The notes under the pieces are model-generated. The model worked only from the letters and a program-made list of their open reading frames with translations. It was not told the origin of the DNA and did not search any database. From an uncultured Candidatus Saccharibacteria bacterium (lineage in GTDB: Bacteria; Patescibacteriota; Dojkabacteria; SC72; JAFGCJ01): 64,000 bases of DNA. Positions 3,894 to 61,655 of this stretch are shown here, piece after piece. Made by a program: the position numbers and the translations under genes. The stretch lies in NCBI GenBank assembly GCA_964481345.1, contig CAYZTC010000001.1, positions 7,766 to 71,765 on the forward strand. Reading direction: 5' to 3'. The stretch's first letter is position 1. Each line of letters begins with the position of its first letter.

Positions 3894-3968
3894 TGGTGCC
3901 GCTACAGAGAATCGAACTCTGATTATTGAGTTGAGAACCCAACGTCCTAACCGTTAGACGATAGCGGC
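3894..3968 (-). tRNA. tRNA-Glu (anticodon CUC)
   Basis: The minus-strand read GCCGCTATCGTCTAACGGTTAGGACGTTGGGTTCTCAACTCAATAATCAGAGTTCGATTCTCTGTAGCGGCACCA folds as a cloverleaf. It has a 7-bp acceptor stem, a D arm, the anticodon loop TTCTCAA (CTC), a T-loop TTCGATT and an encoded CCA. Confidence 0.85.
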
Positions 3969-12507: not shown

Positions 12508-13530
12508 TTACTCATCCTGAAGGCTCTTCATTAAATCTGAATAGTAGGTAAGATTATGGATGGTAGCAAGACTTTGACATGCAATCTCTCCAGATCTAAA
12601 AAGATGATGAAGATATCCTCTTGAGTACTTTTGGCAAGCAAGACAGCCACATTTACTATCGATTGGCTTCAAATCATATTTATATCTAGTATTTTTTATT
12701 CTAATAATTCCTTTCCTTGTATATAAAAACCCATGTCTTGCATTTCTTGTAGGAAGTACACAATCAAACATGTTGTATCCCATTTTGTAACATTTTTTTA
12801 TATCATCAGGAGTACCTACTCCCATTGCATACTTTGGTTTATCATCCGGAAGAAGATTTACAGTATACCTCAAAATGTCTGAAACTAATCTTCTATCTCT
12901 ATCAATCGGCCATCCCCCAAAGCAGTATCCATCAAATCCAATACTTTTAAGTTGATCTGCACTTCTTTCCCTTAAAGATTTATGACTCCCTCCTTGTACA
13001 ACTGCAAACACTTTTACCTTACCTGAATATTTGGGATATTTTTTTATCAAATGATTTTTTCCTCTCTCCGCCCAATAAGTAGTGTTGTCAACCGACTTTT
13101 CTGCATTTTTAACGTCAACACCCTCAGATCTACAATCATCCAGCATTATCATCACATCTGAACCTATTGCCACTTGCATATCCACAGATATTTCAGGAGT
13201 AAGTTTGTGCTCACTTCCATCAACTGGTGACTTAAATACTGCACCATCATTAGTAACCTTACCCATTTTCTTTTTTTCATGTATTAAAGAAAAAACCTGA
13301 AATCCCCCAGAATCTGAGATCACTTTTCCACTCCAATTCATGAAACTCCTAATTCCACCTAGTTTCTTCATCCCATCAAGCCCAATTTTAGTAAGCAAAT
13401 GAAAAGTATTAACAACAAGCATCCTCGTACCTGTCTCTTCTACCTGCTGGGAATTCAACGTTTTTACTGCCCCCAAAGTAGCATCTGGCATAAATACTGG
13501 TAGTTTAAATCCTAGAAATTTTGAAATCAT
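12508..13530 (-). CDS. tgt: Queuine tRNA-ribosyltransferase (tRNA-guanine transglycosylase)
   Basis: TIM-barrel Tgt motifs (MLDDC, VQGG, GVGTPDD) and the zinc site CGCLACQKYSRGYLHHL. Confidence 0.8.
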   Translation of the reverse strand: MISKFLGFKLPVFMPDATLGAVKTLNSQQVEETGTRMLVVNTFHLLTKIGLDGMKKLGGIRSFMNWSGKVISDSGGFQVFSLIHEKKKMGKVTNDGAVFKSPVDGSEHKLTPEISVDMQVAIGSDVMIMLDDCRSEGVDVKNAEKSVDNTTYWAERGKNHLIKKYPKYSGKVKVFAVVQGGSHKSLRERSADQLKSIGFDGYCFGGWPIDRDRRLVSDILRYTVNLLPDDKPKYAMGVGTPDDIKKCYKMGYNMFDCVLPTRNARHGFLYTRKGIIRIKNTRYKYDLKPIDSKCGCLACQKYSRGYLHHLFRSGEIACQSLATIHNLTYYSDLMKSLQDE

Positions 13531-14591
13531 ATCGGTCCACCAATAAACAAGTCACCTTCTTGACGTTGAAGATCATCCTCAAGTTCTTCGGTTTCTTCAG
13601 GTTCTTCTTTTTCTTCTGAAACAATGACGTAGTTTGGATCTATAGGAGATACTATCATCAACACATCAGCACCAAATATCTGATCTAAAGAATCAATCTC
13701 TGCAACACCACTTCCATATCCAAGATACATAGGCAGAGCATATCCATTATCTTGATCAAAATATACCCAAGAACTTAAAAGCTCACTGATTCTTACCTCA
13801 GAAAGATAAGCTTCCTCTTGTATGGCTGGATGTAAATCAGAAAAACCGCTATCTGTTACTTCAAAACTTATGCTTTTGGGAAATGATTCAATGGTAAAAT
13901 TTTGAGATAACTCTTCGTCGTCCATTATGGGTACTCTTTCATATAATTCCACACCTGATAACATGAGTGCAGACATACTGTTTACCTTCCCGAAATTAGT
14001 AAGTTCTATCTGAAGTGCAGAACCATTTAAATGGTAGCTTGAAATATATGAGTTATAACCATCTACTTCATAGTCAATGTCAATTATTGCACTTCCATCA
14101 ATCACACTTGAAAGTACTCTAAATTCAGGAAGATCAGAAAAACCCTTATCATGAAGCTGTTTTACTGCATCATCAATATTATCATCTGAAATTTCACTAT
14201 CAAGCTGTATTCCAACATCTAGTGGAGTTTCAAAGGTAAAAAATGCAAGTCCTGTAGATGGATAAAAATAACAGTATCTAGACTCATCCCCATATTTATA
14301 TGAATCCTCATACTCATCACTATCAGTACTAAGACCTAACAACTGAAGAAGAGACTCAAAGTCCGATTTGTCATATGTATCTACCTGAAACACAGGAGCT
14401 GTACCATCAAGATTCCCATCAGCCAAAAGAGTTATATCTATCTCTGAATCATATGCCGTTAACGGAATCTCCACAGGAGTAGCCTTCAAAAAAGTCCCTC
14501 GTTGAAACCAGTAAATAAAAACAATAGAGGCAAGGAAGAATGCACCAACCACATACCAATATTCTTTTATAAAGATTATTATTTTCTTCAT
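13527..14591 (-). CDS. Hypothetical secreted/anchored acidic protein (cassette gene 4)
   Basis: 354 aa with an N-terminal TM (VVGAFFLASIVFIYWF), then a D/E/S-rich ectodomain. No motif recognised. Overlaps the tgt start by 4 nt. Confidence 0.4.
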   Translation of the reverse strand: MKKIIIFIKEYWYVVGAFFLASIVFIYWFQRGTFLKATPVEIPLTAYDSEIDITLLADGNLDGTAPVFQVDTYDKSDFESLLQLLGLSTDSDEYEDSYKYGDESRYCYFYPSTGLAFFTFETPLDVGIQLDSEISDDNIDDAVKQLHDKGFSDLPEFRVLSSVIDGSAIIDIDYEVDGYNSYISSYHLNGSALQIELTNFGKVNSMSALMLSGVELYERVPIMDDEELSQNFTIESFPKSISFEVTDSGFSDLHPAIQEEAYLSEVRISELLSSWVYFDQDNGYALPMYLGYGSGVAEIDSLDQIFGADVLMIVSPIDPNYVIVSEEKEEPEETEELEDDLQRQEGDLFIGGPI

Positions 14592-14600
14592 GTGTATTTC

Positions 14601-17600
14601 CTAATTACACTTATTTCCTATTGTTGCTCCAGTAATAAATGAACGTACCTGACTTGCACATGCAGTACCAGAAAGTGCCTTACCTTTAGCTATTTCATCC
14701 AGCTCGGACTTAGTACACTTCCCTGAATCAAGTAACGACTGGGATACCTGAAGTCCCCTCATACAATACCCTGACGAAGTAGAAAACATATAATGACCAC
14801 CGTTCCCTGATAAATGCTCCGCACCCCACTCCCTATGACGAAGATAAGGCCAATTTGAAATACTTCCATTACTATGCTGTACCTGATGTGCAATCTCATG
14901 TCTAAATAAACCAGTCAGCATTGCACTACTTGCACTCAATATTTCATCTGGTAAGCACGATATTACCCCTGCTCCACTCCAACACCATGCTCCCGCTTCA
15001 GTTAACCTTCCGTACAATCCAGATCCAGGATATAAAAACTCTAGTCTTGCATTCACACCAAACTCTGCTGCTACTTGATTCAAAATATCAAATGCTGTAC
15101 CAGAAAGTACACTTCCACCATATGACATACTTCCTCCAGTATAGTTTGGATATACCGACCCACCCGTACCAACACACAGCTGACCTGTCGCTCTACTTGG
15201 ATCCTTTATTTTTGAAGGTAGTGAGGCACCTGGCTTAATCCATTGATATATCTCTTTTATTCCGGGGTTATCACCTTTTCCATTAAGATACTCAGGTCCA
15301 GTAATGCCGTTTACATCCCGAGTAGCATCGCAAGTACCAGTCAGATATCTTGTAGCCCATGATGTCCAGTAATCAAGTCCTGGACAGCTATAGTTGTGGC
15401 TGAGTGCCATAAAGGTATTTACTTGAGAATTGAAGTCCTCAGCTGGTGTAACACCATCGTTAATCCCAAAATCTTGCACAGGAAGACTGCTGGAGTCGTA
15501 GTTGCTGGCTCCGGACTCATGTAGCCAGATTAATAGTGCAAATGCAGGATCGACACCTTTGGACAGAGCCCTACATATCACATCGTTATAGCATTCATCT
15601 GCATAGTTAACACCGCCTGTCCATCTATCCGCAAGATCCCCGAAAACCTCTTTACTTATTATTCCAGGAATATTTTGATCTGGAAGTGTTTGATTACAAT
15701 TGATTTTTCCATCGCTATAGTCAGGAAAATCAAAATCCACCGGGCCATACACAAGATGACCACTTGTAAAATCAACCGGCTCACTTAGATATGGCTGGGC
15801 TAGAGTCTGCTTTCCAAAAAAACTTAACCCTGCCGATCCTAAAATTAAACCAATACTAAATAATCCGAGAACTATCAAGGCTATAAACTCAATTAATGGC
15901 TTCAAGAAAAATTCTCCAAGTTTCCATCCCATTTTTATTGCCCAATCAGCAACAAAAGCTGCTATATTCCCTATTCCAGGAATAATGCTACCAAGTGCTT
16001 GAACAAGTACCTTCTGAATAACACTAGTAAGAAGTTGCTTAAAGGGCATCTTAAGCAATTGCCCTACAGTCATCTGGGAAAAATCTGAGAGATATCTCTG
16101 CGCAAACTTTGCAAAAGGCCTCTTCAAAGCATTAGCGATACCTCTTCCAAGTTTATTATTTGCAAAGTCCTCAAGTTTCTTTTTGACGTGAAAAAGAAAC
16201 TGACCTGGCATAATTTTTGCCAATCTTTCTGCAATATGAGGGGGCATCCTTCCCATATCACTAAGTTTTTTCCAGAATCTCCCATCCCAAAAGATACCTT
16301 TTGCGATATTTACTGGATGCCAGTAGTAATATGCATTTGCTACCTTGCCCAGTATATTGTTCTTCCCCTCAAGCCAGCTAAGTCCAAACTCACGATCACC
16401 TGGAACGATTCTACTTTCATATTTAGTAGCAAAATGGTCTAGTGCACCACTTAGCCAGAGATCATTCTTATAATCAAATAGGGTTCCCATCATTAAGCTT
16501 CCAAGAAACTTTCCCTTCAGCTCATCCTTTATCCACGACCTAAGGTACATCCCCTGACCTATCCTTCCCCCTATAGACCCTAAAAAGCCTCCTCTTCCAC
16601 CCAGCACTCTCTGAACAAACTGGCTTCTAAAGGCTAAAGCCTTATTAATCTGTCTCTGGGTAAAATTGCCGCTAGATCTCATGTACCCAATTTCCTCATC
16701 CAGCTTTCTTATCACGCTTTGAGTAGATGCATATCGAATTCGGGCTGTTGTATCAGAATCCTTTTCTTCCACAACTCTCTGGCCAGCTACATATCTGACT
16801 GTTTTTTCTATCTTAGTATAATACCCAAGATCATCATAAATACTAGAGTCACCCCATATCCCATCCACAGATCTAACTAGGTTATCACCAGAGATATTTA
16901 TTCCAGCTCTTGGCTGGATACTGGCTAAATGATTTCCTAAGGCCTGTCTTCTCCGATTTTTATCAGTTAAACTACCAGTATCTCTAACTCCAGTGATAAA
17001 CTGGCTCCTCAAACTCCTCTTTTCTGCACTAGTCAGTAGAATTCCATTCTCCCTTTCGTACTGCTTTATTGCTGCATCTATCTCTGAGTTCCAACCTCTA
17101 GACAGAGCACCTACACTTCCAGCCCTTGGCTCAGCACCAAGTCCTGTCTGATCACCAGTTACTGCATCCCAATGCGACGATAGATCCCTCGACCGTCCAC
17201 GCGTCACCCTTCCACCACCAGGATGGTCTGCCCCAAAACGAAGGGGACTGTACGGACCATAGCCAGTAGCATCATGCATCGTGCTACCAAGATCAAAGGC
17301 AAACCCAGTACTAAAACCAGCATGTTTAGCGTATAGGGAAGAATAAGCTGATTCAAGATATCTCAAATTACCTGTCCATTTGGCAAGTTTTTGATAATCT
17401 TGATACTTTTTCCAGGCAGCATTTATTACTCCCCTTGGATTTGCTACAAATTGAGCAAGAGAGGCAGGTCCAACCTGCATCTTAAATCCTGGAACAGGCT
17501 CTACTTTTACTCGGGATGCAAGGTCTATTTGAAAATTGAAGTCATCAATAAGCTTTTCTGCCGGATATACTACAGGGCGACCTGCAATTTCTGCCAATCC

Positions 17601-17723
17601 TTTTCCTACTCCTGACAGTCCAGAAATATCTACTCCCTCAAGCGGATTTCCACCTTTTGCTTTTTTCGTAGAAAAGATAAAATCAAAAAGCGAACTGTAT
17701 ACTTCATCTTTATCTTTTGGCAT
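14601..17723 (-). CDS. Giant membrane-associated protein with HExxH zincin-like motif and lysozyme/SLT-like segment (cassette gene 3)
   Basis: 1040 aa. Central TM helices (…IEFIALIVLGLFSIGLILGSAGLSFFG…), a C-terminal Cys-rich region with …AFALLIWLHESGASNYD… (lytic-transglycosylase-like) and …LFRHEIAHQVQH (HExxH). No NTPase motifs. Local GC content appears higher than in flanking sequence. Confidence 0.45.
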   Translation of the reverse strand: MPKDKDEVYSSLFDFIFSTKKAKGGNPLEGVDISGLSGVGKGLAEIAGRPVVYPAEKLIDDFNFQIDLASRVKVEPVPGFKMQVGPASLAQFVANPRGVINAAWKKYQDYQKLAKWTGNLRYLESAYSSLYAKHAGFSTGFAFDLGSTMHDATGYGPYSPLRFGADHPGGGRVTRGRSRDLSSHWDAVTGDQTGLGAEPRAGSVGALSRGWNSEIDAAIKQYERENGILLTSAEKRSLRSQFITGVRDTGSLTDKNRRRQALGNHLASIQPRAGINISGDNLVRSVDGIWGDSSIYDDLGYYTKIEKTVRYVAGQRVVEEKDSDTTARIRYASTQSVIRKLDEEIGYMRSSGNFTQRQINKALAFRSQFVQRVLGGRGGFLGSIGGRIGQGMYLRSWIKDELKGKFLGSLMMGTLFDYKNDLWLSGALDHFATKYESRIVPGDREFGLSWLEGKNNILGKVANAYYYWHPVNIAKGIFWDGRFWKKLSDMGRMPPHIAERLAKIMPGQFLFHVKKKLEDFANNKLGRGIANALKRPFAKFAQRYLSDFSQMTVGQLLKMPFKQLLTSVIQKVLVQALGSIIPGIGNIAAFVADWAIKMGWKLGEFFLKPLIEFIALIVLGLFSIGLILGSAGLSFFGKQTLAQPYLSEPVDFTSGHLVYGPVDFDFPDYSDGKINCNQTLPDQNIPGIISKEVFGDLADRWTGGVNYADECYNDVICRALSKGVDPAFALLIWLHESGASNYDSSSLPVQDFGINDGVTPAEDFNSQVNTFMALSHNYSCPGLDYWTSWATRYLTGTCDATRDVNGITGPEYLNGKGDNPGIKEIYQWIKPGASLPSKIKDPSRATGQLCVGTGGSVYPNYTGGSMSYGGSVLSGTAFDILNQVAAEFGVNARLEFLYPGSGLYGRLTEAGAWCWSGAGVISCLPDEILSASSAMLTGLFRHEIAHQVQHSNGSISNWPYLRHREWGAEHLSGNGGHYMFSTSSGYCMRGLQVSQSLLDSGKCTKSELDEIAKGKALSGTACASQVRSFITGATIGNKCN

Positions 17724-17743
17724 TTATACAAAACTACACCAGT

Positions 17744-19159
17744 TTAGCTACCAAACAAACCACCTACTAATGGAATCTTACTTGCAGACTTTTGAATATC
17801 TTGAGAAGCCTTTGCTGATCCAGGAGACTGCTTAAGTTGAAATATATCCTCTACTAGTGTAGGTGCACTTGCTGCAACAAAGTAGCCTGCAAGTATAATG
17901 GCACCCTTCAACTGAATAACTGGGCTTCCAGTACTTGATCCCCCTCCCATAAATCCTGAAAAATTTCCACCCAGTGGATTCGTAATATTCGGACTTCCAA
18001 TGTATCTGAAAAGATTGATTATCAAGAACACAAACGGAAATACAAGTGAATTTACAAGAAGTCTTTTTATCCAGTTTGTTACATTAGTCTTACCCCCCGG
18101 AAGCGACCCAATCAACAGATATATTGGTCCAAGTACTAGATCCATTACAATTTTTATGTATGACATCACTAAAGTGAAAAATAGCTTGAAGGCCGCATAA
18201 AGTGCCACAAATCCCAATATTACAGTAAGAATTATTTTCAAAGAACCAGTTACAATATCAACCAAAACCTTAATTGCACCACTTAAAAATCCTGTTTGCG
18301 GAGTAGCCCAAGTAGCACCTGTTGCACTACCGAATGCATCCCGTGCCATCTGGAGTGGACCACCAATTGGTACAGAATCAAATCCAGGTAGTGCACCATC
18401 CAACTGATTATCTATTACACGAGTAACAAGTCGGCTAATATCTATTGCAAACCCTACTATTGCAAAACTGAAAGTGACAAGCACTAGTCCTACCAATATC
18501 GAGGGAAGTGAATTCATTACAGTAACAGCCACCTGACCCCCAATTTTTGTCCTGAACATTATCATAAATCCTGTAGCAACAAGTATTAAGACAAACCCAA
18601 CATATGCAATATTTCTAAACATTAACCATACTTGCTCTACTCCCAAGTCTTGAAGATGAGAATATCCGGTATCAGCTGCAAGCACTGAAACAGATGCCCC
18701 GTCAGCACCAGGAATCCACTGCCTTGCAAGATGTGAGGGAATATCAACCCCAGGCGGATTGTACAATAGTGCAGTTACCTGCTCATCAGTAGTATTTATC
18801 AAACCTGCTCTAGTTGAAGAAGACAAATCAGAACGGTTTACCCCCGCCGAAACACCCCCACCATCAAATGAGTCAGTCCCAAATTGAAGAACTGCCATAT
18901 CTATAAAGAAACTATTCCTTGTGGCTGTACCAGTAGTAGCACTACTCATGGTATCACCAGTAACATACACTGTAGCATTTTGACCCTCTTGGAAGACCTC
19001 TGCTGCATTTAAGAATGGTTCTGTCGTCTCATCATCCTGTGCAAGAACAACTGAAAAAGAACTCAGTACAAATACTTGAGTCAGTATGAGAGCAATAATC
19101 GATGGAAGATACTTAGTATTTTTCTTAAACCATCTGAATATTTTCATTATTTTGTTCAT
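17744..19159 (-). CDS. Polytopic membrane protein with signal peptide and S/T/G-rich ectodomain (TrbL/VirB6-like topology) (cassette gene 2)
   Basis: 471 aa. N-terminal signal, then a ~170-aa extracytoplasmic domain, then at least 6 TM helices. Confidence 0.4.
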   Translation of the reverse strand: MNKIMKIFRWFKKNTKYLPSIIALILTQVFVLSSFSVVLAQDDETTEPFLNAAEVFQEGQNATVYVTGDTMSSATTGTATRNSFFIDMAVLQFGTDSFDGGGVSAGVNRSDLSSSTRAGLINTTDEQVTALLYNPPGVDIPSHLARQWIPGADGASVSVLAADTGYSHLQDLGVEQVWLMFRNIAYVGFVLILVATGFMIMFRTKIGGQVAVTVMNSLPSILVGLVLVTFSFAIVGFAIDISRLVTRVIDNQLDGALPGFDSVPIGGPLQMARDAFGSATGATWATPQTGFLSGAIKVLVDIVTGSLKIILTVILGFVALYAAFKLFFTLVMSYIKIVMDLVLGPIYLLIGSLPGGKTNVTNWIKRLLVNSLVFPFVFLIINLFRYIGSPNITNPLGGNFSGFMGGGSSTGSPVIQLKGAIILAGYFVAASAPTLVEDIFQLKQSPGSAKASQDIQKSASKIPLVGGLFGS

Positions 19160-19183
19160 CTATATAGTAAATAAATTAAGATC

Positions 19184-20656
19184 TTAGTTAGCTTGCCCAT
19201 CAATTATCAACTGGCAAGATTTATATTCATCACTACTAATTTCAGTACAACTTCCATTAATCACACAATCACATCTCTTTGTCACATACTGCATATATGA
19301 AAAGTAGCCAAACGGCCCATCATATTCACAGAAGTTAAACCTGATTGGTGGCTCTCCCTCCTCAGCAATGACTGTAGCATAATTTACCTCTGGATCACAT
19401 ATCGAAGATCCAAGCTCACTACTTTGCCATACTGCAAACATATAATCAGGCCATACACAAGCAGCCTTTGCAATTTTACCAGAACACTCGACCTTAACCT
19501 GACATGGAGTAGCAACATATTTTCTAACACTCCCACCTCCAGGAATTGTCCTTGCATCTATTTTTATCCTTCCTGCGTTACTTGTATGTTCCTCCATATT
19601 AAGAAGAACTCTAGCATCAGTACTTCCAGTACAAATCCCCATTTTTATACAATATTCAGTCGCTTTTACAAAAATACTCCACACCCCTCCCCATCCTAGA
19701 AACCCATGGTCATCGATACAGGATCTTTCAGTAGTACCTATCACCACTCTTAAATCAGAATAGTCGTCGCAAGATGCAGTATCATCAGGATATAGGTATT
19801 CCACAGTTTCAGCTACGGACATAGGTACTGGCTCATTCCCAGATATTATCCTGGGATACAGCGTTTTAGCAGAATAGGTTGGACTTGCACATCCCTTATC
19901 ACCAATGAGAGTGCTCCCCGGTGCTGATTGCAAGCACTGAGGGCTATACCATGTCTGAGTTTCTCCCTTATGCGTTGTCTTTTCTACAAAATCTAGTGAA
20001 TAATCTATACCAGCCCGAGGTGACCCATCATTCGTCTCAAATACGCTACTACCTGGTGCCTCATATATTGCCCCATAGTTATTACCCGCTACCGTCGGGG
20101 TACCATCCTTTGCATTTACCACAGCCCCTCCTGAATCTTTACCTGCAACATATGGCCATTCTCCGGTATGAATGTCATATCTATTATCTGTGCTTCCGCC
20201 CACAAATTTATTATGCCCATTCCAATACACAGGGTAGGTTATCTCGTGAACACTTAGTATACAATCTTTACTTACCCATAAACTCTCAGTGATGCCTTGT
20301 ACTGATGCAGATAAAGTAAAAGAGGCAGAATCACACACATTATCAATTGCTGGAACTTTCACTCCGTCACAATCTTCCCTCGAAGTGCCAAGTACACTTC
20401 CCGATCCACACTCATAACACGCATTTTCCTCCTCTTCCAATATATTTAGTGTTGATAAACGTGGAACATCCTGATCTTCCAAAATCCTTTTTTCCTCACT
20501 TACGCTTGAATTATCACTTAATGCTCCTGTCTCAATAAAATCCCTCAAAAATGAAAACATTATAACAAATGCAACTCCACCCACAAGAATCAGAAGAGCC
20601 ATCATTTTTTCAGATTTAAAACTCACCTTTAGCTTTGAGAAAATAAGCTTTTTCAT
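19184..20656 (-). CDS. Secreted cysteine-rich protein (cassette gene 1)
   Basis: 490 aa with an N-terminal TM/signal (MMALLILVGGVAFVIMFSF) and more than 25 Cys. No motif recognised. Confidence 0.4.
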   Translation of the reverse strand: MKKLIFSKLKVSFKSEKMMALLILVGGVAFVIMFSFLRDFIETGALSDNSSVSEEKRILEDQDVPRLSTLNILEEEENACYECGSGSVLGTSREDCDGVKVPAIDNVCDSASFTLSASVQGITESLWVSKDCILSVHEITYPVYWNGHNKFVGGSTDNRYDIHTGEWPYVAGKDSGGAVVNAKDGTPTVAGNNYGAIYEAPGSSVFETNDGSPRAGIDYSLDFVEKTTHKGETQTWYSPQCLQSAPGSTLIGDKGCASPTYSAKTLYPRIISGNEPVPMSVAETVEYLYPDDTASCDDYSDLRVVIGTTERSCIDDHGFLGWGGVWSIFVKATEYCIKMGICTGSTDARVLLNMEEHTSNAGRIKIDARTIPGGGSVRKYVATPCQVKVECSGKIAKAACVWPDYMFAVWQSSELGSSICDPEVNYATVIAEEGEPPIRFNFCEYDGPFGYFSYMQYVTKRCDCVINGSCTEISSDEYKSCQLIIDGQAN

Positions 20657-20689: not shown

Positions 20690-21712
20690 TTAAGTAATCA
20701 GCATACTGTCTCCATAGCTTAAAAACCTACATTTTTCTTTTTTAGCCTCTTCATATGCCCTCATAATAAGGCCCCTTCCAGCAAATGCTGATACTAAAGT
20801 CAAAAGACTAGTCCTAGGTGCATGAAAATTAGTGACTAGTACATCCACAACCTTAAACTTGTATCCAGGATAAATAAATAAACTGGTTTCCCCTTCATAT
20901 CGCTTTATTTTGTCACTGTCAATTGCAACACTTTCAAGTGCTCTTACTACAGTTGTACCAAATGCCCATACTCTACCTTTACATTTATTCACACAATCAA
21001 CAGCTGACTTTCCAATAGATATTTCTTCTGGATGAATTTGAAAGTCTTCTACTTTTTCGGTATTTATTGGAGCAAAAGTCCCCCATCCAACCTCAAGATC
21101 CACATAACAAACCTTCGCACCTCTATCCTTTATCCCCTTTAAACTCTTTTCAATAAGATTAAGGCTTGCAGTTGGAGCGGCGACAGAATTATCATCCTCA
21201 GCAAACACGGTGTTATACCTAATTTTATCTGAATCAACATCCTTTCTTTTGATATACGGAGGAAGCGGGACATGACCATACTTGCTCATTATTTCTTTTG
21301 CATTCCTTGCTTGTATCATGAATCCAGGATCACTCTCTTTCCTTTCAACAATTTCCAATTCATACTCATTCAATAACAGCCTGTCACCTATCTTTACATT
21401 CCTAGCCCTTCCGACAAGACAATGCCATAGGCCCTTTTCAGCATTTTTTAAAAATAATACTTCTACCCTTCTTCCCGTCCTTTTTACAGTTGGAAAGATT
21501 CTTGCCCATAATACTTTTGTTTTATTCAGTACTACCACATCATCTTTTTTAATATAGTCAGGAATATCACTGTAATGCTTATGCTGAATACTCCTAGTTT
21601 TTCTGTTTAACACTAACAACTTTGTATCACCTCTTTTTTCTGGTGGATTTTGTGCAATAATCTCTTTTGGCAACTCATAATCAAACAAACTCGTTTTCAT
21701 AAACTTCAACAA
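20690..21712 (-). CDS. queA: S-adenosylmethionine:tRNA ribosyltransferase-isomerase
   Basis: …TSLFDYELPKEIIAQNPPEKRGDTKLLVL… matches the QueA signature and length (340 aa). Confidence 0.8.
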   Translation of the reverse strand: MLKFMKTSLFDYELPKEIIAQNPPEKRGDTKLLVLNRKTRSIQHKHYSDIPDYIKKDDVVVLNKTKVLWARIFPTVKRTGRRVEVLFLKNAEKGLWHCLVGRARNVKIGDRLLLNEYELEIVERKESDPGFMIQARNAKEIMSKYGHVPLPPYIKRKDVDSDKIRYNTVFAEDDNSVAAPTASLNLIEKSLKGIKDRGAKVCYVDLEVGWGTFAPINTEKVEDFQIHPEEISIGKSAVDCVNKCKGRVWAFGTTVVRALESVAIDSDKIKRYEGETSLFIYPGYKFKVVDVLVTNFHAPRTSLLTLVSAFAGRGLIMRAYEEAKKEKCRFLSYGDSMLIT

Positions 21713-22927: not shown

Positions 22928-23421
22928 AGCTGGACTAAGCAGTACATAAGCCGAATTCTGTCTAGATGACCATTTATCTTCCAATTCGCCAGAGGCGAAT
23001 GGACCCACAGCCGAACTCAAATTTTCAAGATGAGTGCGACATAGGGTGCGGCACTAGGCCTTGCTCCAAGCGGGGGTTACCACGCACTCTTCGATTACTC
23101 TCAGAGCCGGTGGTCTCTTACACCACCTTTTCACCCTTCCCGCCTTCGTTCTCGTCTCCGACTCGAACTACGGCGAGGTGAATCCCCACACAATAAATAA
23201 ATATTTTGGGGCTCGCCTCGTCGCAGCCTCAGCGAAGCTGAGAGCGAAGACGGGGGTTTGCTTTCTGTTGCCCTTTTATCCAAAAGATCACTCCCTTCCT
23301 GCTTTCACAGGCACTTACTCCGAATCGTCGGAGCCACAAGGAGTCCGGACTTTCCTCCCTTCGGCAAGCTCAGAGCAAGCCCCTCACTCACCAAACGGCG
23401 GTCATCAGTAATACTTAGTCC
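22928..23421 (-). ncRNA. rnpB: RNase P RNA (bacterial type)
   Basis: The minus strand contains the P4 5' strand GGGAGGAAAGTCCGGACTCC, GGGTGAAAAGGTGGTGTAAGAGACCACC (P10-P12-like), the P4 3' strand ACAGAATTCGGCTTATG, and a P1 pairing GGACTAAGTA/TGCTTAGTCC. GC-rich in an AT-rich genome, so the three listed + strand ORFs inside are spurious. Confidence 0.8.
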
Positions 23422-44783: not shown

Positions 44784-45719
44784 ATGTCGTCTGAGTCAAA
44801 AGGAATGATTGTAAGAAGGTTTGTTACTTTCCTTTCCGCATTCATAATAACCTCATTATTTGCGGGTAAACTTACTGATTACACTTTAGCTGAGGATCCA
44901 GAACTTGAGACAGAAGTATTAGGAGTAAGTACTGAAGATAATGTAATAGAAGTCCTTCCAACAAAACCAAGAATACTATCGATTTTTAAACCTAAAACTG
45001 TAGAGATATACCATATGGGCACAATATATAGAGGTGTAACATACTCCAGAACAGTGGAAGAAGCCATAGAAGACCTAGGGGTTGAAATAATAGAAAACTC
45101 ACTCATTACACCGGATAAGGACTACATTCTAGGGCTTTTTACATCAGTCAGAATAGATGAAATCGAAAGGGTAAAACATGTCGAATATGAGTACATAGCA
45201 TACGACACTATTGAGCAAGAAGATGATACTACTGAATGGGGAAAGGAAAGCATAGTCCAACCTGGAATAACCGGTCAAAGAAAACTAACGTTTGAATACC
45301 TCTATATAAACAATGTATACAAAGGAAAAATACTAGTATCAGAGGAGATAGTTGTAGAGCCGCAGGAAGAGATAGTTGCGATTGGTACAAAGAAGGTATT
45401 TAAAGAAATTACAATAAATGGTGATACATTCTCATACTGGATAACTATGAACGTATATGCAACCTCATATGATAGCTCCTGTCCCGGATGTTCAACTAGA
45501 ACTGCAACAGGCATGACACTAGACAAGGGCATTATTGCTGTCGACCCAACAGTAATTCCACTTCACACTAAAATGTATGTACCTGGATACGGCTTTGGTG
45601 CTGCTGAGGATACAGGAGGAGCAATTAAAGGATACAAAATTGACTTAGGATTTGATGACCTTAAGGAACATCAGGGTGAATGGAGTGCAAGATATGTCGA
45701 TATCTACCTTCTAGACTGA
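44784..45719 (+). CDS. G5 + 3D domain cell-wall protein (YabE/YuiC/Rpf-like)
   Basis: N-terminal signal/TM, a G5-like segment (…VQPGITGQRKLTFEYLYINNVYKGKILVSEEIVVEPQEEIVAIGTKK) and a C-terminal 3D domain (…ATSYDSSCPGCSTRTATGMTL…GIIAVDPTVIPLHTKMYVPGYGFGAAEDTGGAIKGYKIDL). Confidence 0.6.
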   Translation: MSSESKGMIVRRFVTFLSAFIITSLFAGKLTDYTLAEDPELETEVLGVSTEDNVIEVLPTKPRILSIFKPKTVEIYHMGTIYRGVTYSRTVEEAIEDLGVEIIENSLITPDKDYILGLFTSVRIDEIERVKHVEYEYIAYDTIEQEDDTTEWGKESIVQPGITGQRKLTFEYLYINNVYKGKILVSEEIVVEPQEEIVAIGTKKVFKEITINGDTFSYWITMNVYATSYDSSCPGCSTRTATGMTLDKGIIAVDPTVIPLHTKMYVPGYGFGAAEDTGGAIKGYKIDLGFDDLKEHQGEWSARYVDIYLLD

Positions 45720-47753
45720 AGAGTTATCCCAAGAATAAAAATCTACTAGATCAGGTGGTATCTCAGATATAAATCTGGACGGAATCCTCTCTCCAAAACC
45801 TCCATATGTACTCCTGTTTTCAGCATAGGAAAGAAATAGTCTCTTTTTTGCCCTAGTTATTCCCACATAACAAAGTCTTCTTTCTTCCTCCAGCTCAGAT
45901 GGACTGGTGAATGAACGCACATGTGGAAACAGACCTTCCTCCATCCCAACAACAAATACATCGTTATACTCTAGACCTTTTGCAGAATGAAGAGTCATTA
46001 GTGTAACCATTTCATCATCTATCTGGTCATCATCATACTTACTATCCTGCTCAACAAGTGCTACATCAGAAAGAAATTCCAAAAGCGAATCCTTAGGACC
46101 AAGCTTGGAATATTTATCAGCTACAACCTTTAGCTCATATATATTTTCTTTTCTGGACTCTGCTTGTTCTGTACCGTCATCTATCCACTTTTCATATTTA
46201 GTCATATCCAATATTTCGTCTATTAGCAACCTTGCATTTATTGATTTTGAAATATCATAAAGATTGCCAAATAAGTTGATAACCTTTTCATATTTTGAAT
46301 AAATATTTAGATTTTTTCCCTTTTCCAATTCATCCTTAAACCCTTTTGCAATCTTTTCACTTGGAATAAACTTTTCAATATTCTTTACATTATTTTTCCC
46401 CGCCCAAAGAAGTAAAAGAGCTACCCCAAGTTTGTACTTGCCACCACAAAACTCTTTTGCAAACCTTTTCAGTTCTTCAAGAGACTTTTCCCCAATCTTT
46501 CTCGATGGTACATTCAATATCCTAACTAGCGACGTCATGTCTTGAGGATTTGCAAGAAATCTAAGATATGCAAGTAAGTCTTTGATCTCTCTTCTTTCGT
46601 AGAATCTCACTCCTCCCACCAATCTATATGGAATGGTATTTCTAATCAAAATTTCCTCAATAATTCGCGACTGTGCATTTGTCCGATAAAGGATAACAAT
46701 ATCATTTAGTTTATTCCCTTCATTTCGTATTTCTTTAATTCTATCAATAACAAACTCCACCTCATCTTTTCCACTTTTAGCCTGATACAGTACAACCTTT
46801 TCACCCTCCCTCGCATCTGTCCACAGGTCCTTATCAGCTCTTTCTGTATTTTGAATAATTACTGAATGTGCCGCATGAAGGATATTCCTTGAGGAGCGGT
46901 AGTTCTTTTCAAGCTTAATAACTTTCGCACCTGGAAAATCTTTTTCAAAACTTAATATATTTTTTATGGTTGCACCTCTCCATGAATAAATTCCCTGATC
47001 ATCATCCCCAACAACACATATATTCTTATGTTTGTTTACAATATTTTTTATCAGCTGATACTGAATCAAATTTGTATCCTGATACTCATCAACCAAAACA
47101 TATTTATACTGAGTGTGATACTTTTTTCTAATATCTGGATTTTCCTCAAGTATCTGTAAAGGAAGAATCTGTAGATCATCAAAGTCAGCCGCATTCTGAG
47201 ATCTTAACCTTTTCTCATACTCAGAATATACATCTGAAACGACCTCTTCCAATTGCCCCCTTACAAAACTCGGATATTCTTTAGGAGAAATCCTCTCATT
47301 TTTTGCTGAGCTTATAAGACTTGCTATCACAGTAGGATTGAACTGCTTCCTGTCAATGTTTTTATCATCCATGATCTGCTTAATCAAATGAAGAACATCG
47401 TCAGGATCATATATTGAAAAACCATAGGGCAAACCTATTATTCTTCCCTCTTTTCTTAATAGTTGCGCACCAAAAGAATGGAAAGTTCCAATAAATGGCA
47501 GCCTCCCAGTCCACTTGCCCTTTAAGTTTTCCTTCATAAGCTGTCTTACCCTTGACTTCATTTCCCCTGCAGCCTTTCTGGTAAATGTCACTGCAAGAAT
47601 ATTTTCTGGTTCAACCACCTTATCCAAAATCAACCTTGCGATTCTATAGGTAATCACCCTTGTTTTACCGGAGCCTGCACCAGCAAAAATTAAAAGAGGC
47701 CCACTATCATGTAACACAGCTTCCTTTTGCTGCTGGTTTAAAGATTCAATCAT
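45711..47753 (-). CDS. pcrA: ATP-dependent DNA helicase UvrD/PcrA family
   Basis: SF1 helicase motifs: AGAGSGKTRV (Walker A), DEYQDTN, and C-terminal …VTLMTLHSAKGLEYNDVFV… …YVGITRAKKRL. Confidence 0.85.
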   Translation of the reverse strand: MIESLNQQQKEAVLHDSGPLLIFAGAGSGKTRVITYRIARLILDKVVEPENILAVTFTRKAAGEMKSRVRQLMKENLKGKWTGRLPFIGTFHSFGAQLLRKEGRIIGLPYGFSIYDPDDVLHLIKQIMDDKNIDRKQFNPTVIASLISSAKNERISPKEYPSFVRGQLEEVVSDVYSEYEKRLRSQNAADFDDLQILPLQILEENPDIRKKYHTQYKYVLVDEYQDTNLIQYQLIKNIVNKHKNICVVGDDDQGIYSWRGATIKNILSFEKDFPGAKVIKLEKNYRSSRNILHAAHSVIIQNTERADKDLWTDAREGEKVVLYQAKSGKDEVEFVIDRIKEIRNEGNKLNDIVILYRTNAQSRIIEEILIRNTIPYRLVGGVRFYERREIKDLLAYLRFLANPQDMTSLVRILNVPSRKIGEKSLEELKRFAKEFCGGKYKLGVALLLLWAGKNNVKNIEKFIPSEKIAKGFKDELEKGKNLNIYSKYEKVINLFGNLYDISKSINARLLIDEILDMTKYEKWIDDGTEQAESRKENIYELKVVADKYSKLGPKDSLLEFLSDVALVEQDSKYDDDQIDDEMVTLMTLHSAKGLEYNDVFVVGMEEGLFPHVRSFTSPSELEEERRLCYVGITRAKKRLFLSYAENRSTYGGFGERIPSRFISEIPPDLVDFYSWDNSSV

Positions 47754-47760
47754 GAAATGA

Positions 47761-48975
47761 TTATAGCTTTTTTACATATTCACAAAATACCCATCCCTCA
47801 TTTACCCCATCGTACACAATATTGCACCATCCAACCTTTTCTTCTTTAAGTATAGTCGCATATCCAACATCCACAGCACTAATCTGATCACAACTTGGAT
47901 GTCCACACTCTCTTACAGTCAAAACACCTGTACCTGTCTCTCTAATTTCAACAAGCTGATAGCCACCCTCAGATACACTTATGCTTATACTTAAGGCTGT
48001 ATCAACAATCCAGCTTGCAGGTAGTCTTATTAGCTCATATTGCTCAGTGTATGTGTCTGGAAGTATTGGTGCTCTACCGGAAAACTCAAATGTAGCTACC
48101 TCCCCTGGCATCACAATCTCCTCAGTAGGTGTAACAATTCTTGAAAAGCTTGACCATTCATCTGGAAAATAAATAACACTTGCATGCCCTCGAGGATCAG
48201 AAGTTGCAAGATATGTAGCTCTACTTCCACTGTTATACCATGGAAAATCACCTGTATTTTCTGCAGTCACTACCACACTAAAAGTTTCCCATGATTTCGC
48301 ACTGCCTTCATAAGTAACTTCGATAATTTCACCAGACAAATCGAGACCTAGGCCATCACCAGTCTTATATTCCTTCTTAAAATTGCTTACCCAGTTTACA
48401 AGGTATCCATCAGCAGCAGTAGTAATATTTATTACAGATGGCTGACTCTCCTGAGAAATACTAAATGATAGATCACCAATAAAGATATCTTGCATCTCGA
48501 TTGAAAAGGTTGTCGCGGCTTTACTGACAATATCTGTCAAAGTGTCATCCCCTTGGTTTGTAAGTCCTCTTTCATTATCAAAATATGCTATTAAAAGAGG
48601 ATTGCTGTAGTCTTTTTCAACATCAAACGTTGCAAGTGGGTTTACTTCATACTCACCTCCCCTGCCTTCATAAACATCACCTTGCCAGGAAACTACATAG
48701 TGAAATGGCACATCCAAAAAGTTTAAATGTGTAATCATATAATAGTACAATCCCTTCATCCATTCATCTCCATCACTAAAGCTGATTGACTCCCCACTTT
48801 CTATCCTTACAATACAAATTGAATCTATATAACCATAAGTATTTTGACTTTGATCAGAAAGCCCCTCATCGAAATTAAGATCATCCCTTGTTACTATCTC
48901 CTGGGCAAAAACAGGAGATGTGAGGAAAAATACTGAAAATAAGATTAGTAATACAAAAAACAATAATTTCTTCAT
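47761..48975 (-). CDS. Secreted protein, possible PGRP/amidase_2-like domain with C-terminal SH3b-like domain
   Basis: Signal peptide; …HYVVSWQGDVYEGRGGEYEVNP… weakly resembles amidase_2; the C-terminal …GWCNIVYDGVNEGWVFCEYV is SH3b-like. Confidence 0.3.
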   Translation of the reverse strand: MKKLLFFVLLILFSVFFLTSPVFAQEIVTRDDLNFDEGLSDQSQNTYGYIDSICIVRIESGESISFSDGDEWMKGLYYYMITHLNFLDVPFHYVVSWQGDVYEGRGGEYEVNPLATFDVEKDYSNPLLIAYFDNERGLTNQGDDTLTDIVSKAATTFSIEMQDIFIGDLSFSISQESQPSVINITTAADGYLVNWVSNFKKEYKTGDGLGLDLSGEIIEVTYEGSAKSWETFSVVVTAENTGDFPWYNSGSRATYLATSDPRGHASVIYFPDEWSSFSRIVTPTEEIVMPGEVATFEFSGRAPILPDTYTEQYELIRLPASWIVDTALSISISVSEGGYQLVEIRETGTGVLTVRECGHPSCDQISAVDVGYATILKEEKVGWCNIVYDGVNEGWVFCEYVKKL

Positions 48976-49017
48976 GTTGTTAAGTATACAAAAAACAAGT
49001 AGTAAATTGAAATGTAT

Positions 49018-50697
49018 TTATTCTTCAAGATTTCTAATAAAATCCTTTTCCCATCTATACCTTCTTTCTTCATTATAGTAATTTCCAAGTATGACAACTC
49101 CATAAATTATCAACACTAAAGATACAGTCAAAGCCACTGCTGCAATACCATTAATAGCTGTCTCAGGAAGCTCAGCTATTGTAGATTCCCCTTCTTTATT
49201 TATATTTAGCTCAAGTCCAAGTACTTCTCCATCAGTATCACTAATAGTATATGACTTTACATCACTATCTCCAGCAGCAAGACCTGTCAGAACTAATGTG
49301 TCACTTTGTTCATAATCAAAATATGAATCATAATCAGCTGTTCTTACTGACCCTAAATCAAAAAGCCAGTCACCATCAGAATCTGTTGCTACTGAAACTA
49401 TAGAGGAATCTGATGATCCAGAGGATACCTTACCAAGCACAACTGCATCTGCCAATGCTGTACCAGTCACAACTCCAACTATTGTTTGAGATGTAGGAGG
49501 AGAAGACTGAGTAGCTGGTGTAGTTTGAGAATAGGCTGATCCATTATCATCATACAAAACTCCCCCAGAGCTTATTTTGAAATGGTATGTAGTTTCTGGC
49601 TCAAGGTCTTCCAACGTCACATGATGCATATAGTATTGAGATTGAGAAGTGAGGGAATCTCTGTCATCTACTGCTTCATCTCCAAGGGACGAGGATGTAC
49701 CATAGGTAACATAACCTGTCTCTTTTTCATCGCTTTCCCAAATCACAGAAAAGGAGTTTTCAGTAACGTTTGCAATCCCCACATCTTCTATTGCAGATCC
49801 TGATTCAGACAATTCAGGTGTACCCATAGGTGTTAAAATAATCTCGTCAGAATCTGATGTGTCAGTATCAGAGGTATCTTCTGTAGAGGTGTCGGCTTCA
49901 TCTCCCACATCAAGCATTGAAGAGTCAGAAAATATCTGAGTGGTTGAGACATTTTCATCCATTGTCATTTCAATCGTAGTACCTATTCCAACAGTAGTTT
50001 CCACAATTGCACCACCCTTATCTGCCCCCTGTGCAAATATGTTCATCTTTGTACTATCCGTATAAGAGTAGTTACCACTCAGGGTAGAAGTTCGAATGTG
50101 AGATAGATCGACCTCAAAATTACCAGAGTCATTTGTAAGAGTAGAAACTGGAAATGACCTACTTCCCTCTGCTCCCAAAGTAACATACACAATTGCACTT
50201 TTATTCTCACCATTAGTCACACTACCATAAACTGGATCTGGTGAAGGTGGCACCGAAAAACTTCCTGACGATGCAGTTGTAAAATCAAATGCACCGCCAT
50301 CTTCATCCTTATATTCCTGAGTCCCAGAGCCTATTACAAAGTAATGTTTTGTAGAAGGATCAAGACTGGACATCGTAACATAATGAGTATTTCTTTTTGA
50401 GGTACTTCCCGAACTAACATCTCTAGTATCCTGTGCTATTTGTGCACCATCTCCAAGTTGAGAGGACGTCCCATATTTTATCCATCCTTCAGCTGACAGA
50501 TCTGGGGTGACCCACGAAATGACAACTGAAGTTTCAGTAAGATCACTTATTCTTATCTCTTCAGGAGTAGGGCTAGAAACAGCTCTAGCGCGCCAATCAC
50601 TATAATAATTAAAACCTAAAACACTTATGGGAATAGCAAACAGTATTATTGCTGCAATTATCGTATATGTCTTTTTTTTACGAGGAGATACATACAT
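49018..50697 (-). CDS. Surface protein with two fibronectin-III-like domains and a C-terminal LPETA sorting signal (probable sortase substrate)
   Basis: Two repeats (…ETSVVISWVTPDLSAEGWIKYGTS… and …NSFSVIWESDEKETGYVTYGTS…) separated by a D/S/T-rich linker. The C-terminus ELPETA is followed by a hydrophobic helix and the RRYRWEK tail. Confidence 0.6.
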   Translation of the reverse strand: MYVSPRKKKTYTIIAAIILFAIPISVLGFNYYSDWRARAVSSPTPEEIRISDLTETSVVISWVTPDLSAEGWIKYGTSSQLGDGAQIAQDTRDVSSGSTSKRNTHYVTMSSLDPSTKHYFVIGSGTQEYKDEDGGAFDFTTASSGSFSVPPSPDPVYGSVTNGENKSAIVYVTLGAEGSRSFPVSTLTNDSGNFEVDLSHIRTSTLSGNYSYTDSTKMNIFAQGADKGGAIVETTVGIGTTIEMTMDENVSTTQIFSDSSMLDVGDEADTSTEDTSDTDTSDSDEIILTPMGTPELSESGSAIEDVGIANVTENSFSVIWESDEKETGYVTYGTSSSLGDEAVDDRDSLTSQSQYYMHHVTLEDLEPETTYHFKISSGGVLYDDNGSAYSQTTPATQSSPPTSQTIVGVVTGTALADAVVLGKVSSGSSDSSIVSVATDSDGDWLFDLGSVRTADYDSYFDYEQSDTLVLTGLAAGDSDVKSYTISDTDGEVLGLELNINKEGESTIAELPETAINGIAAVALTVSLVLIIYGVVILGNYYNEERRYRWEKDFIRNLEE

Positions 50698-61600: not shown

Positions 61601-61652
61601 AAGTCTTAGAAAGTAATTTCTCTATATTTTTATGTAACCTAATATAGTCCAT
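58629..61652 (-). CDS. Large (1007 aa) alpha-helical protein of unknown function (defence-operon gene 3)
   Basis: No NTPase, nuclease or protease motifs seen. Composition is helical-repeat-like. Translationally coupled to the CHAT gene (3-nt gap). Confidence 0.4.
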   Translation of the reverse strand: MDYIRLHKNIEKLLSKTSKEAVLEDVLKFVSKDRDYFFARADGRWLRWLWKNGFLDVLKKKAEDAPRYGYQSPEINYLLKVSEKNPSEVVDIMLEIPISRKTFNPEVIDRFLRICSELSAKQLARIVGKIHRENWVKLMGSFKQYGFEYEKMFRTLVDVKDYMNILKLVETVLSVRTKKEMKTVNNRPSSENPFYFGDLSSTKVIEHLFLMSEKYTEKALKLVTKVMAKIVNLGEKSNTEKVFEINDLFPMYVVDFFTLELDESEYPSYEKGMRDLAAIIKIFLNRLISKKCEEIDLIREVYEKYIEPLPDSRSMWRLRLFVLCLCPKVFKNELKEEFFRLFEAEHYYEIISGAEYEKALRKGFSVLSNDDKGEYVKMVVEYFKNRDKDKEDRDQSVIYGSRVLSMIIGYLTNGEEKKIEKAGFILDPSYKPKPSIGPLRSGTVISRGPIPQEVFNKLEIKEIVQNLKTEWVPEKLKKQNTNNSSFDRINARGIGKYIQSDIPNRLQDYINSSLLFFDRNVIDPHYTYSFLRGLQETISKDKEKLNSINWDGLIDLLTVIKESGEKKSFVSLKRDYKDFDTWLAGWNSVHCAMADIIKKLLEESNGKVVIDFPKYRDQIFDMISYLLRYPDPTVDYEKLETASMTEISGVNKDKLVSDPFSIAINSVRGKAFEAFVYFVFQDGKKFDKKVEVKISRDVKKLYEYVLTEEKTRAIYFMFGHYLPSFYFRDKKWILDLTVKIFPLSEKKKHLYIASWEGYLSNDLFEEIFFDKELQKLYKKGLSLNNNMDPNRKYFKDLKEGIAIHLALAFVHYKEFGFDDTLFKAFWRDNDYDRQASFLNFLGRYILGDNNKVKELLKKKWCKDRLCNLWDRVLENRKNPRLFEEFGHWMNTKVEVFEIHWLSDHVRRTLEKTKGVIEYEYGLIDSIVQFAKDSPKDTLEISKLYLLEGFVRLKKNSTFSLDEEWVSAFSVLYANQETKSGTYLLINDLIREGGSMFWKLKDAIKETK

Positions 61653-61655
61653 AAT

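Follow-up and report, generated by a model that had tools for sequence, protein, structure and literature searches.

A four-gene cassette conserved across the sampled Dojkabacteria pairs a VirB6-type membrane protein with a tethered, putative cell-wall hydrolase

The genes queA and tgt are adjacent in many bacteria, such as Escherichia coli and Bacillus subtilis. In the 64,000-nt stretch of contig CAYZTC010000001.1 analyzed here (positions 7,766 to 71,765; hereafter the window), which comes from a member of the Dojkabacteria, four genes lie between them, designated A, B, C, and D. What do these genes encode, what might their products do together, and did they enter this site as a foreign insertion? 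The cassette proves to be native, not a foreign insertion: it is kept in essentially all sampled Dojkabacteria, and its four genes have relocated together from one conserved site in the chromosome to another. Judged from a structure model and from the genomic context of distant relatives, B is a VirB6-type protein, and it is encoded next to a membrane protein, C, whose relatives carry peptidoglycan hydrolase domains. The genes and their flanks are as follows.

queA, upstream flank: 20690-21712, minus strand; Pfam Queuosine_synth PF02547 at 5e-110, NCBIfam QueA NF001140 at 2.5e-112
Gene A: 19184-20656, minus strand; 490 aa, Cys-rich protein (from the open reading frame listing)
Gene B: 17744-19159, minus strand; 471 aa, polytopic protein with a predicted VirB6 (TrwI/DotA) fold
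Gene C: 14601-17723, minus strand; 1040 aa
Gene D: 13527-14591, minus strand; 354 aa, acidic, anchored protein
tgt, downstream flank: 12508-13530, minus strand; Pfam TGT at 1.5e-110, TIGR00430 at 7.7e-114

This layout agrees with an initial annotation of the window, made from its letters alone, which had described four co-directional, tightly packed genes without a recognizable ATPase between queA and tgt. The open reading frame (ORF) coordinates, both flanks and the gene inventory were confirmed, and Pfam and NCBIfam searches found no ATPase domain in any of the four proteins; for VirB4-type ATPases there was no Pfam match in any ORF of the window. The intergenic gaps are 33 nt (queA to A), 24 nt (A to B), 20 nt (B to C), and 9 nt (C to D), D overlaps tgt by 4 nt, and 266 nt separate tgt from rny. 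Because the gaps are short and D and tgt overlap, the six genes look like a single transcription unit, probably with queA as the first and tgt as the last gene of a tight block. Promoter and terminator scans of the block returned no more sites than were found in shuffled sequence. None of the A–D proteins has a match above the curated cut-offs of Pfam or NCBIfam, and PHROGs gave nothing below E 0.1; below threshold, B matched DUF3188 (E 0.4), C matched DUF6531 (E 0.003), and PHROGs added three further weak matches. The initial annotation had added that the cassette may be undescribed. This stands insofar as curated matches are lacking and no description of an A-B-C-D cassette was found in the literature searched, including a survey of secretion in the candidate phyla radiation (CPR; PMC12102498), but the same block occurs in many Dojkabacteria.

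Relatives of B were scanned in one genome per species, which gave 492 stretches, and the best 80 loci were examined by calling ORFs and labeling them with iterated hidden Markov models (HMMs). The named relatives of the window B protein are Candidatus Dojkabacteria (WS6); the NCBI labels of many loci from metagenome-assembled genomes ('Saccharibacteria', 'Nomurabacteria') conflict with synteny and with their position in the B tree. Among these best 80 of 492, the order of a Cys-rich protein of ~420–560 aa followed by B, C, and D recurs in ~70 loci of species-representative genomes. At the commoner site (~60 loci), the block is bracketed by an fn3/Pur_ac_phosph_N gene and an SH3_3 gene; next come uvrD, a tetratricopeptide repeat (TPR) protein gene and the gene for elongation factor G (EF-G). 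The queA/tgt site is used in six genomes: the window, L004/L012, L010, L011, L093, and L094. In L011 the contig begins within gene A and the tgt side alone is visible. The six form one clade in a neighbor-joining tree of B. Within this clade, the window B protein is 41–47% identical to its relatives and the flanking housekeeping proteins are 50–68% identical, compared with 23–29% for A, 28–33% for C, and 20–27% for D. Relative to B and the flanks, divergence is thus two to three times faster in A, C, and D, as is often expected of exposed proteins. The idea that the cassette might be specific to one lineage did not survive the comparison of queA-tgt synteny, which revealed the same site in at least five other genomes, with B proteins only 38–43% identical to that of the window, and the block in ~60 loci elsewhere. 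The other possibility raised at the outset, that these are ordinary conserved envelope proteins, is half right: they are conserved in many relatives, yet they are not ordinary known envelope proteins.

The window itself retains the counterpart of the commoner site, without the cassette.

'Empty site': 47761-50697, minus strand; fn3/Pur_ac_phosph_N gene at 49018-50697 and SH3_3 gene at 47761-48975, then uvrD at 45711-47753 (Pfam)

Here the fn3 and SH3_3 genes are contiguous, only 42 nt apart, and the fn3-SH3-uvrD site was either vacated or never occupied by the cassette. Since A-B-C-D occur in the same order at two conserved sites, the four genes have moved as one unit between them. The likely direction is into queA/tgt; this is argued from queA and tgt being neighbors in many other bacteria and not from the neighbor-joining tree of B, in which the queA/tgt clade lies beside, not inside, the fn3/SH3 clade. 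In one genome of the fn3/SH3 type (L017:1-5000), a tgt fragment stands directly upstream of the fn3 block, which may bear on the route of relocation. Another locus (L015:52-8049) has a tandem C(partial)-D-B-C-D arrangement without A between the copies, which suggests that the module was duplicated locally. In the window, a G5 and 3D domain protein (RpfB/YabE-like, wall-associated) is encoded at 44784-45719 between the TPR protein gene and uvrD as the sole plus-strand gene of that stretch, which adds wall-related content near the empty site.

The initial annotation had called B VirB6/TrbL-like, and both the fold and the genomic context of relatives support this. A hydropathy scan of B shows an N-terminal anchor and five to six transmembrane segments at aa 184–432, and thus the topology of VirB6/TrbL proteins: polytopic, with at least five transmembrane helices and an external N-terminal domain. 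An AlphaFold (AF2) model built from an alignment of 43 family members is all-helical (pLDDT 78.6), and two structure-comparison methods agree on its similarity to solved VirB6 subunits; in Foldseek, five TrwI chains rank at the top with probabilities of 0.99–1.00. The leading weak Pfam match in the B family is TrbL (PF04610), seen in 1 of 43 members (E 0.051) and in 3 of 50 (best 5.4e-4). The family is large, with 5108 cluster representatives in a profile search. Its distant members in L090 and L092 lie with T4SS_pilin/TrbC arrays and with genes for P-loop_TraG/DUF87 (VirB4-type) ATPases, TraC-like proteins and PrgI, and a further distant relative, in L008, is accompanied by seven T4SS_pilin genes; no VirB4 gene was found within the 21 kb of L008. 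Given this type IV secretion context, which is independent support for the modeled fold, B is taken to be a VirB6-type protein. The pilin genes adjoining the distant VirB6-like genes form arrays of four to eight divergent T4SS_pilin copies (L008:1471-5060, L090:446-2840, L092:4503-7418). A GSLPGGKT string in B (aa 351–358, nt 18097-18120, minus strand) was considered as a Walker A motif and rejected; it falls in a loop between transmembrane helices, and only GSLPG is conserved.

C is the largest of the four proteins, and its sequence can be divided into the following parts.

C N-terminal domain, aa 1-570: 16014-17723, minus strand; Cys-free, without a signal peptide, predicted cytoplasmic; the part conserved throughout the C family
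C membrane segment(s), aa 572-590 (weak) and 610-628 (strong): 15840-16010, minus strand; from the hydropathy scan
C middle external module, aa 671-852 (182 residues): 15168-15713, minus strand; unproven module with a lysozyme/SLT-like motif, LIWLHESGAS; coordinates checked by translation
C C-terminal HExxH domain, aa 853-1040: 14604-15167, minus strand; candidate gluzincin-type metallopeptidase in the place of M23

Lysine residues precede the strong transmembrane segment, all 12 Cys residues are located after residue 675, and a signal peptide is lacking. These features fit an N-in, C-out orientation with a large cytoplasmic domain. Word-index searches returned only three homologous proteins for C and two for D. 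A census of the C family at the related loci covered 69 long (≥700 aa) proteins, including some shortened by contig ends. The C-family HMM spans the N-domain in these 69 proteins, and the outer part varies. By motif, ~40 carry an M23-type HxH signature, 16 carry HExxH and three are CHAP-like, and the remaining 10, which are paralogs or come from truncated contigs, show none of these. Pfam recognizes Peptidase_M23 in 12 of 35 C relatives and CHAP in 3 of 35, and the C family profile matches solved M23 peptidases in the PDB (9.4e-7). At the family level, therefore, C has a recognized catalytic domain of peptidoglycan hydrolases.

In the window C protein, the place of M23 is taken by the HExxH domain, with HEIAH at aa 942–946 (nt 14886-14900). 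The motif, noticed at the outset, is real and belongs to a conserved domain, in which H111, E112, H115, Q118, and E134 are invariant (14-sequence alignment A7). Against PDB profiles this module gave only weak matches, to the active-site helix of the gluzincin ColH collagenase (E 0.3–1); it is probably a zinc metallopeptidase. The middle module is common to only the window C protein and its homolog P0074, on which Pfam Glucosaminidase reaches E 0.16. The initial annotation had seen an SLT-like segment in C, and this holds at the level of the motif only: hhalign places KGVDPAFALLIWLHESGA on the motif of E. coli EmtA that contains the catalytic Glu, but with a probability of 1.3%, without statistical support, and comparison with TrwN gave no match. 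The combination of hydrophobic segments with a C-terminal M23 domain also brought a phage tape-measure-like origin of C into consideration; it was rejected at the sequence level, where neither PHROGs nor phage tblastn gave matches.

D had been described as acidic and anchored, and is both: it has a transmembrane segment at aa 11–29, 69 Asp and Glu against 17 Lys and Arg residues, and a disordered acidic tail. The modeled fold of its external domain, which follows the N-terminal transmembrane segment, matches the PepSY-related proteins YycI, YycH, and YpeB and not VirB8, TcpC or PrgL, although the alignment used for this prediction was shallow (13 sequences, assembled from exact cluster look-ups). 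A VirB8/TcpC-like subunit, which the gene order orf15-orf14-orf13 of Tn916 would lead one to expect, was rejected on the ground of this fold. At the sequence level, D has no Pfam YycH, YycI or PepSY match at E ≤ 1 and no PDB match of note, and its locus contains neither a histidine kinase (WalK) nor a SleB gene. YycH and YycI are membrane-anchored and regulate WalK, a kinase of wall homeostasis; the lytic enzyme SleB has an obligate partner in YpeB; and PepSY domains act as inhibitors of M4 metallopeptidases. D is full-length beside most C proteins of the M23 and HExxH types. In all three loci of the CHAP type it is a 145–175-aa stub (L040:8638-9165, L058:14495-14992, L059:14585-15022), in which the transmembrane anchor and the first 50–70 profile positions remain. 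Because D is reduced to a stub wherever CHAP replaces the metallopeptidase, these sequences suggest, in a small sample, that D is linked to the metallopeptidase module of C. D is absent altogether from L043 and L077.

A had been described as a Cys-rich secreted protein. It has 20 Cys residues and a single N-terminal hydrophobic anchor or signal (aa 19–37), and the remainder is predicted to be extracellular. The proteins at this position belong to one family in 72 of 75 loci, with ~8–20 Cys residues each, and the window A protein joins the family through the L006 protein (E 2.4e-5). Eight Cys residues are invariant among 32 aligned sequences. The family has no Pfam or PDB sequence match, and is presumably one of anchored, external, disulfide-stabilized proteins without annotation. 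A VirB5-like partner was looked for in A, and a comparison of the A profile with TrwJ/VirB5 gave no signal.

The pairing of B and C is not confined to the cassette. A second conserved triad in Dojkabacteria consists of a gene for a ~250-aa protein, B' (~620–650 aa) and C' (~620–770 aa), in which C' matches the N-domain and transmembrane segment of C, without a hydrolase.

B'-C' triad loci: L028:8455-13275, L061:24-4534, L097:3780-8308, L027:654-5704, L091:7578-12301

In L028 and L097 the triad adjoins (rpmH-)rnpA-yidC-jag-Wzy_C, with dnaA also present in L028, and in L061 and L097 it is convergent with genes for a PilM/FtsA-like ATPase and RNase J. No VirB4 gene was found adjoining the B'-C' loci. 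Triad and cassette occur in the same assembly in three cases (L028 with L039, L027 with L077, L061 with L074), indicating that the B-C pairing is old and was duplicated.

What, then, might the cassette do? In several conjugative elements, a VirB6 gene is followed by a wall hydrolase gene (conG-cwlT in ICEBs1, orf15-orf14 in Tn916), as in the PrgH/PrgK pair, and the job proposed here is modeled on the role of VirB1, PrgK, and CwlT beside VirB6 in single-membrane conjugation machines. We consider the cassette to be a secretion-derived envelope module for opening or remodeling the wall, which works with secretion ATPases encoded elsewhere or alone, and we hold this reading with about even confidence. 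B would be a membrane platform or channel with a VirB6 fold. The N-domain of C would stay in the cytoplasm, while its interchangeable outer domain (M23, CHAP, or HExxH with a possible lysozyme-like module) would cut peptidoglycan locally. D, anchored beside C, may hold, position or restrain the hydrolase, and A may be a disulfide-rich, anchored partner facing outward. Such a four-protein complex, itself without an ATPase, could act on the wall where a surface structure is located, opening or remodeling it. That the proteins form a complex, how they are oriented in the membrane, that D is regulatory, what A does, and whose wall is cut are all inferred. The idea of wall remodeling, one of the functions suggested in the initial annotation, fits the M23 and CHAP domains of C relatives and the fold of D, which is that of wall-hydrolase partners.

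Several observations weigh against this reading. Genes for VirB4, VirD4, VirB3 or pilin were found neither within the cassette nor elsewhere in the 64-kb window, nor as neighbors of the cassette in any of the ~70 loci. Tested as a whole for membership of the MPF_FATA-like type IV secretion systems (T4SSs), the cassette fails throughout, with no VirB4, VirB3/PrgI, VirB8, VirB5 or pilin. A small gene upstream of the block at the commoner site was tried as a T4SS pilin and rejected, as it has weak DUF948-like matches only. Because D is not VirB8-like, B alone among the four has a genuine counterpart in secretion systems, and for B the fold scores are moderate (TM ~0.3–0.47), all matches of the family to PF04610 remain below its cut-off, the window B protein has no match to it at E ≤ 1, and an attempted sequence bridge from the B profile to R388 TrwI was rejected with a non-significant hhalign probability of 0.5%. 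The N-domain of C has no Pfam, PHROGs or PDB match of note, and the same is true of the whole of A. The putative hydrolase modules of the window C protein itself correspond to no curated Pfam or PDB domain and are recognized only by motif and conservation. Finally, universal conservation among housekeeping genes fits plain maintenance of the cell wall equally well.

This last point leads to the alternative that survives best, namely a housekeeping autolysin complex for growth or division that is unrelated to secretion, in which B would be a scaffold or regulator of a tethered C and D would exert control of the YycH/YycI/YpeB type; FtsX-PcsB/EnvC and SpoIIM-SpoIIP-SpoIID are models for such a scaffold and hydrolase. 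The cassette is nearly universal in the sampled Dojkabacteria and lies among core genes (r-proteins, fmt, queA, tgt, and rny, or uvrD and the EF-G gene), it is probably co-transcribed with queA and tgt, and its codon usage is native (see below). There is no secretion ATPase or pilin gene near any cassette locus, the closest folds to D all come from systems of wall homeostasis or cortex lysis, and the commoner site is flanked by wall-associated SH3_3 and fn3 proteins. However, the hydrolase module switches between M23, HExxH, and CHAP, and A, C, and D diverge fast, a pattern more typical of proteins that face another organism than of a core divisome enzyme, and we know of no precedent for a 570-aa cytoplasmic domain on an autolysin, which also counts against this alternative. 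We consider it somewhat unlikely.

The same features could instead point outward, to the breaching of a host wall in the contact zone of an episymbiont. Here the complex would present or deliver the hydrolase of C to host peptidoglycan, with A as its adhesin or tip; the resulting breach would give access for type IV pili, uptake or feeding, and D would protect the producer by keeping the enzyme inactive until contact. The exchange of the hydrolase module between lineages (M23, HExxH or CHAP, with the extra lysozyme-like module in the window C protein) would be in keeping with this, as would identities of 20–33% for A, C, and D where housekeeping proteins are 50–68% identical. PepSY-type folds inhibit proteases, and D shrinks when CHAP replaces the metallopeptidase. 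Southlakia epibionticum cannot grow epibiotically without its type IV secretion genes and the peptidase and lysozyme genes next to them (PMC12102498), and tubular structures have been reported at the parasite–host interface of a related lineage (10.64898/2026.06.21.733656). On the other hand, neither the host nor the lifestyle of the Dojkabacteria is established by these data, C is anchored in the membrane and has no obvious site of release, neither polymorphism of the toxin/immunity kind nor a signal for effector delivery was shown, and fast evolution by itself is no proof of host targeting. This alternative is unlikely in our judgment.

A bolder version sees in the cassette a VirB6-type channel turned into a stand-alone, ATPase-independent surface organelle of host access. 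A would cap B in the way that IcmX or VirB5 caps DotA or VirB6, C would couple its cytoplasmic domain to an exchangeable wall-breaching enzyme, and D would be a safety catch. This would be a new contact-dependent class that descends from type IV secretion but has left it, with the B'-C' pair near the replication origin as a sister module pointing to a whole family of such devices. We regard it as improbable.

There remains the question of foreign origin, to which base composition speaks directly. The initial annotation had noted a higher local GC content, and the difference is real (0.402 in the cassette, 0.371 in the window), but it is confined to codon positions 1 and 2 (0.42–0.48 compared with 0.405 ± 0.038), whereas GC at third positions (GC3) is 0.23–0.31 in the four genes compared with 0.299 ± 0.045 in the 60 other ORFs of the window. 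The distances in relative synonymous codon usage (RSCU) of A–D likewise lie in the middle of the distribution for window genes of similar length. The excess in positions 1 and 2 with an ordinary GC3 therefore reflects amino-acid composition, not foreign origin. The comparison of GC and codon usage with the rest of the window had been set beforehand as a check on the proposed insertion, and GC3 and RSCU show no difference. No integrase, relaxase, repeats or adjacent tRNA gene were seen at the cassette, and the sole tRNA gene lies at 3894-3968, ~9.6 kb away. The cassette shows no phage similarity in PHROGs or phage tblastn searches, and tblastn of B against plasmids gave a single chance-level match (E 0.3). 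A recently acquired genomic island, or what is left of a conjugative element or prophage, at the queA-tgt junction would explain why two genes that are neighbors in many bacteria are split here, why cassette GC exceeds the window mean by 3 points and why a VirB6-like gene lies inside, but it is effectively refuted by GC3 and RSCU values indistinguishable from the rest of the window, by the lack of mobility genes, repeats and an adjacent tRNA gene together with phage searches without a match and the chance-level plasmid match, by a queA/tgt placement common to genomes whose B proteins are only 38–43% identical, and by the presence of the block at another core locus in ~60 further Dojkabacteria loci.

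Returning to a secretion-derived wall-opening module, the cassette can be compared with known systems. With the VirB6/TrbL subunits (R388 TrwI and Legionella DotA; also PrgH, ConG, and Orf15), B shares fold and topology as predicted, but it falls below the Pfam threshold, is encoded away from any VirB4, VirB3 or pilin gene, and is one of at least two to three VirB6-like paralogs per genome. C resembles PrgK, which combines LytM, SLT, and CHAP domains, in that it is anchored, has modular external hydrolases (M23, CHAP or lysozyme-like), and is encoded beside a VirB6-like gene. Unlike PrgK (pCF10), TraG (pIP501), and CwlT (ICEBs1), C has in addition the ~570-aa Cys-free N-domain, and the window C protein has HExxH instead of M23. 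D differs from YycH, YycI, and YpeB in that it has no sequence match to them, carries an acidic disordered tail and has no WalK-type kinase in its locus. The rvh T4SS of Rickettsiales is encoded at scattered loci and has multiplied VirB6 paralogs (PMC2653234, PMC7648143). It sets a precedent, in a reduced, host-dependent genome, for several VirB6-like genes and for components at a distance from virB4, but the rickettsial paralogs are in tandem and belong to a recognizable full system, whereas B is fixed in a four-gene cassette with partners that are not of secretion type. The MPF_FATA-like T4SSs of the CPR, from the same broad lineage, are defined by VirB4, TrsD, PrgI, and pilin arrays; their VirB6 and VirB1 are poorly detected, often lie away from virB4 and are sometimes combined with M23 domains (PMC12102498). 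The cassette differs from these systems in having no VirB4, TrsD, PrgI or pilin arrays, and it does not appear in that survey. Not described in the literature searched, then, is the class-wide combination of a VirB6-type subunit, a tethered putative wall hydrolase with exchangeable modules, a YycI/YpeB-type partner and a disulfide-rich protein, independent of loci for secretion ATPases.

Candidate-phyla bacteria depend on other cells, and in a cultivated relative type IV secretion is one of only a few functions that epibiotic life has been shown to require. The functions of VirB1 and VirB8 are largely unassigned in CPR secretion systems (PMC12102498), and the cassette offers a concrete candidate, open to testing, for the opening of the wall, a step left unassigned in surveys of CPR secretion because both proteins went largely undetected. 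It brings three protein families without annotation into view (A, the N-domain of C, and the HExxH module) and provides a clean example of a functional module whose genes stayed together when they changed from one conserved chromosomal site to another. If the plain autolysin complex were the true explanation, the cassette would still represent a new architecture for controlling wall hydrolysis in very small genomes.

Some other features of the window deserve mention. Its contig, of CPR affiliation, is also present in JGI metagenome 3300008516. Upstream of queA, a class A RNase P RNA lies at 22932-23417 on the minus strand (156.5 bits); it is 486 nt long compared with 367 positions in the model and has sizeable insertions, and a high-GC ORF at 23061-23411 on the plus strand is a spurious overlap with it. 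At 58629-63975 on the minus strand, a gene for a 1007-aa protein without a Pfam match is followed by genes for a weakly matching CHAT-domain protein and an Eco57I/TaqI_C N6-adenine methylase; this region has the lowest GC content of the window (0.32–0.35) and may be a defense islet.

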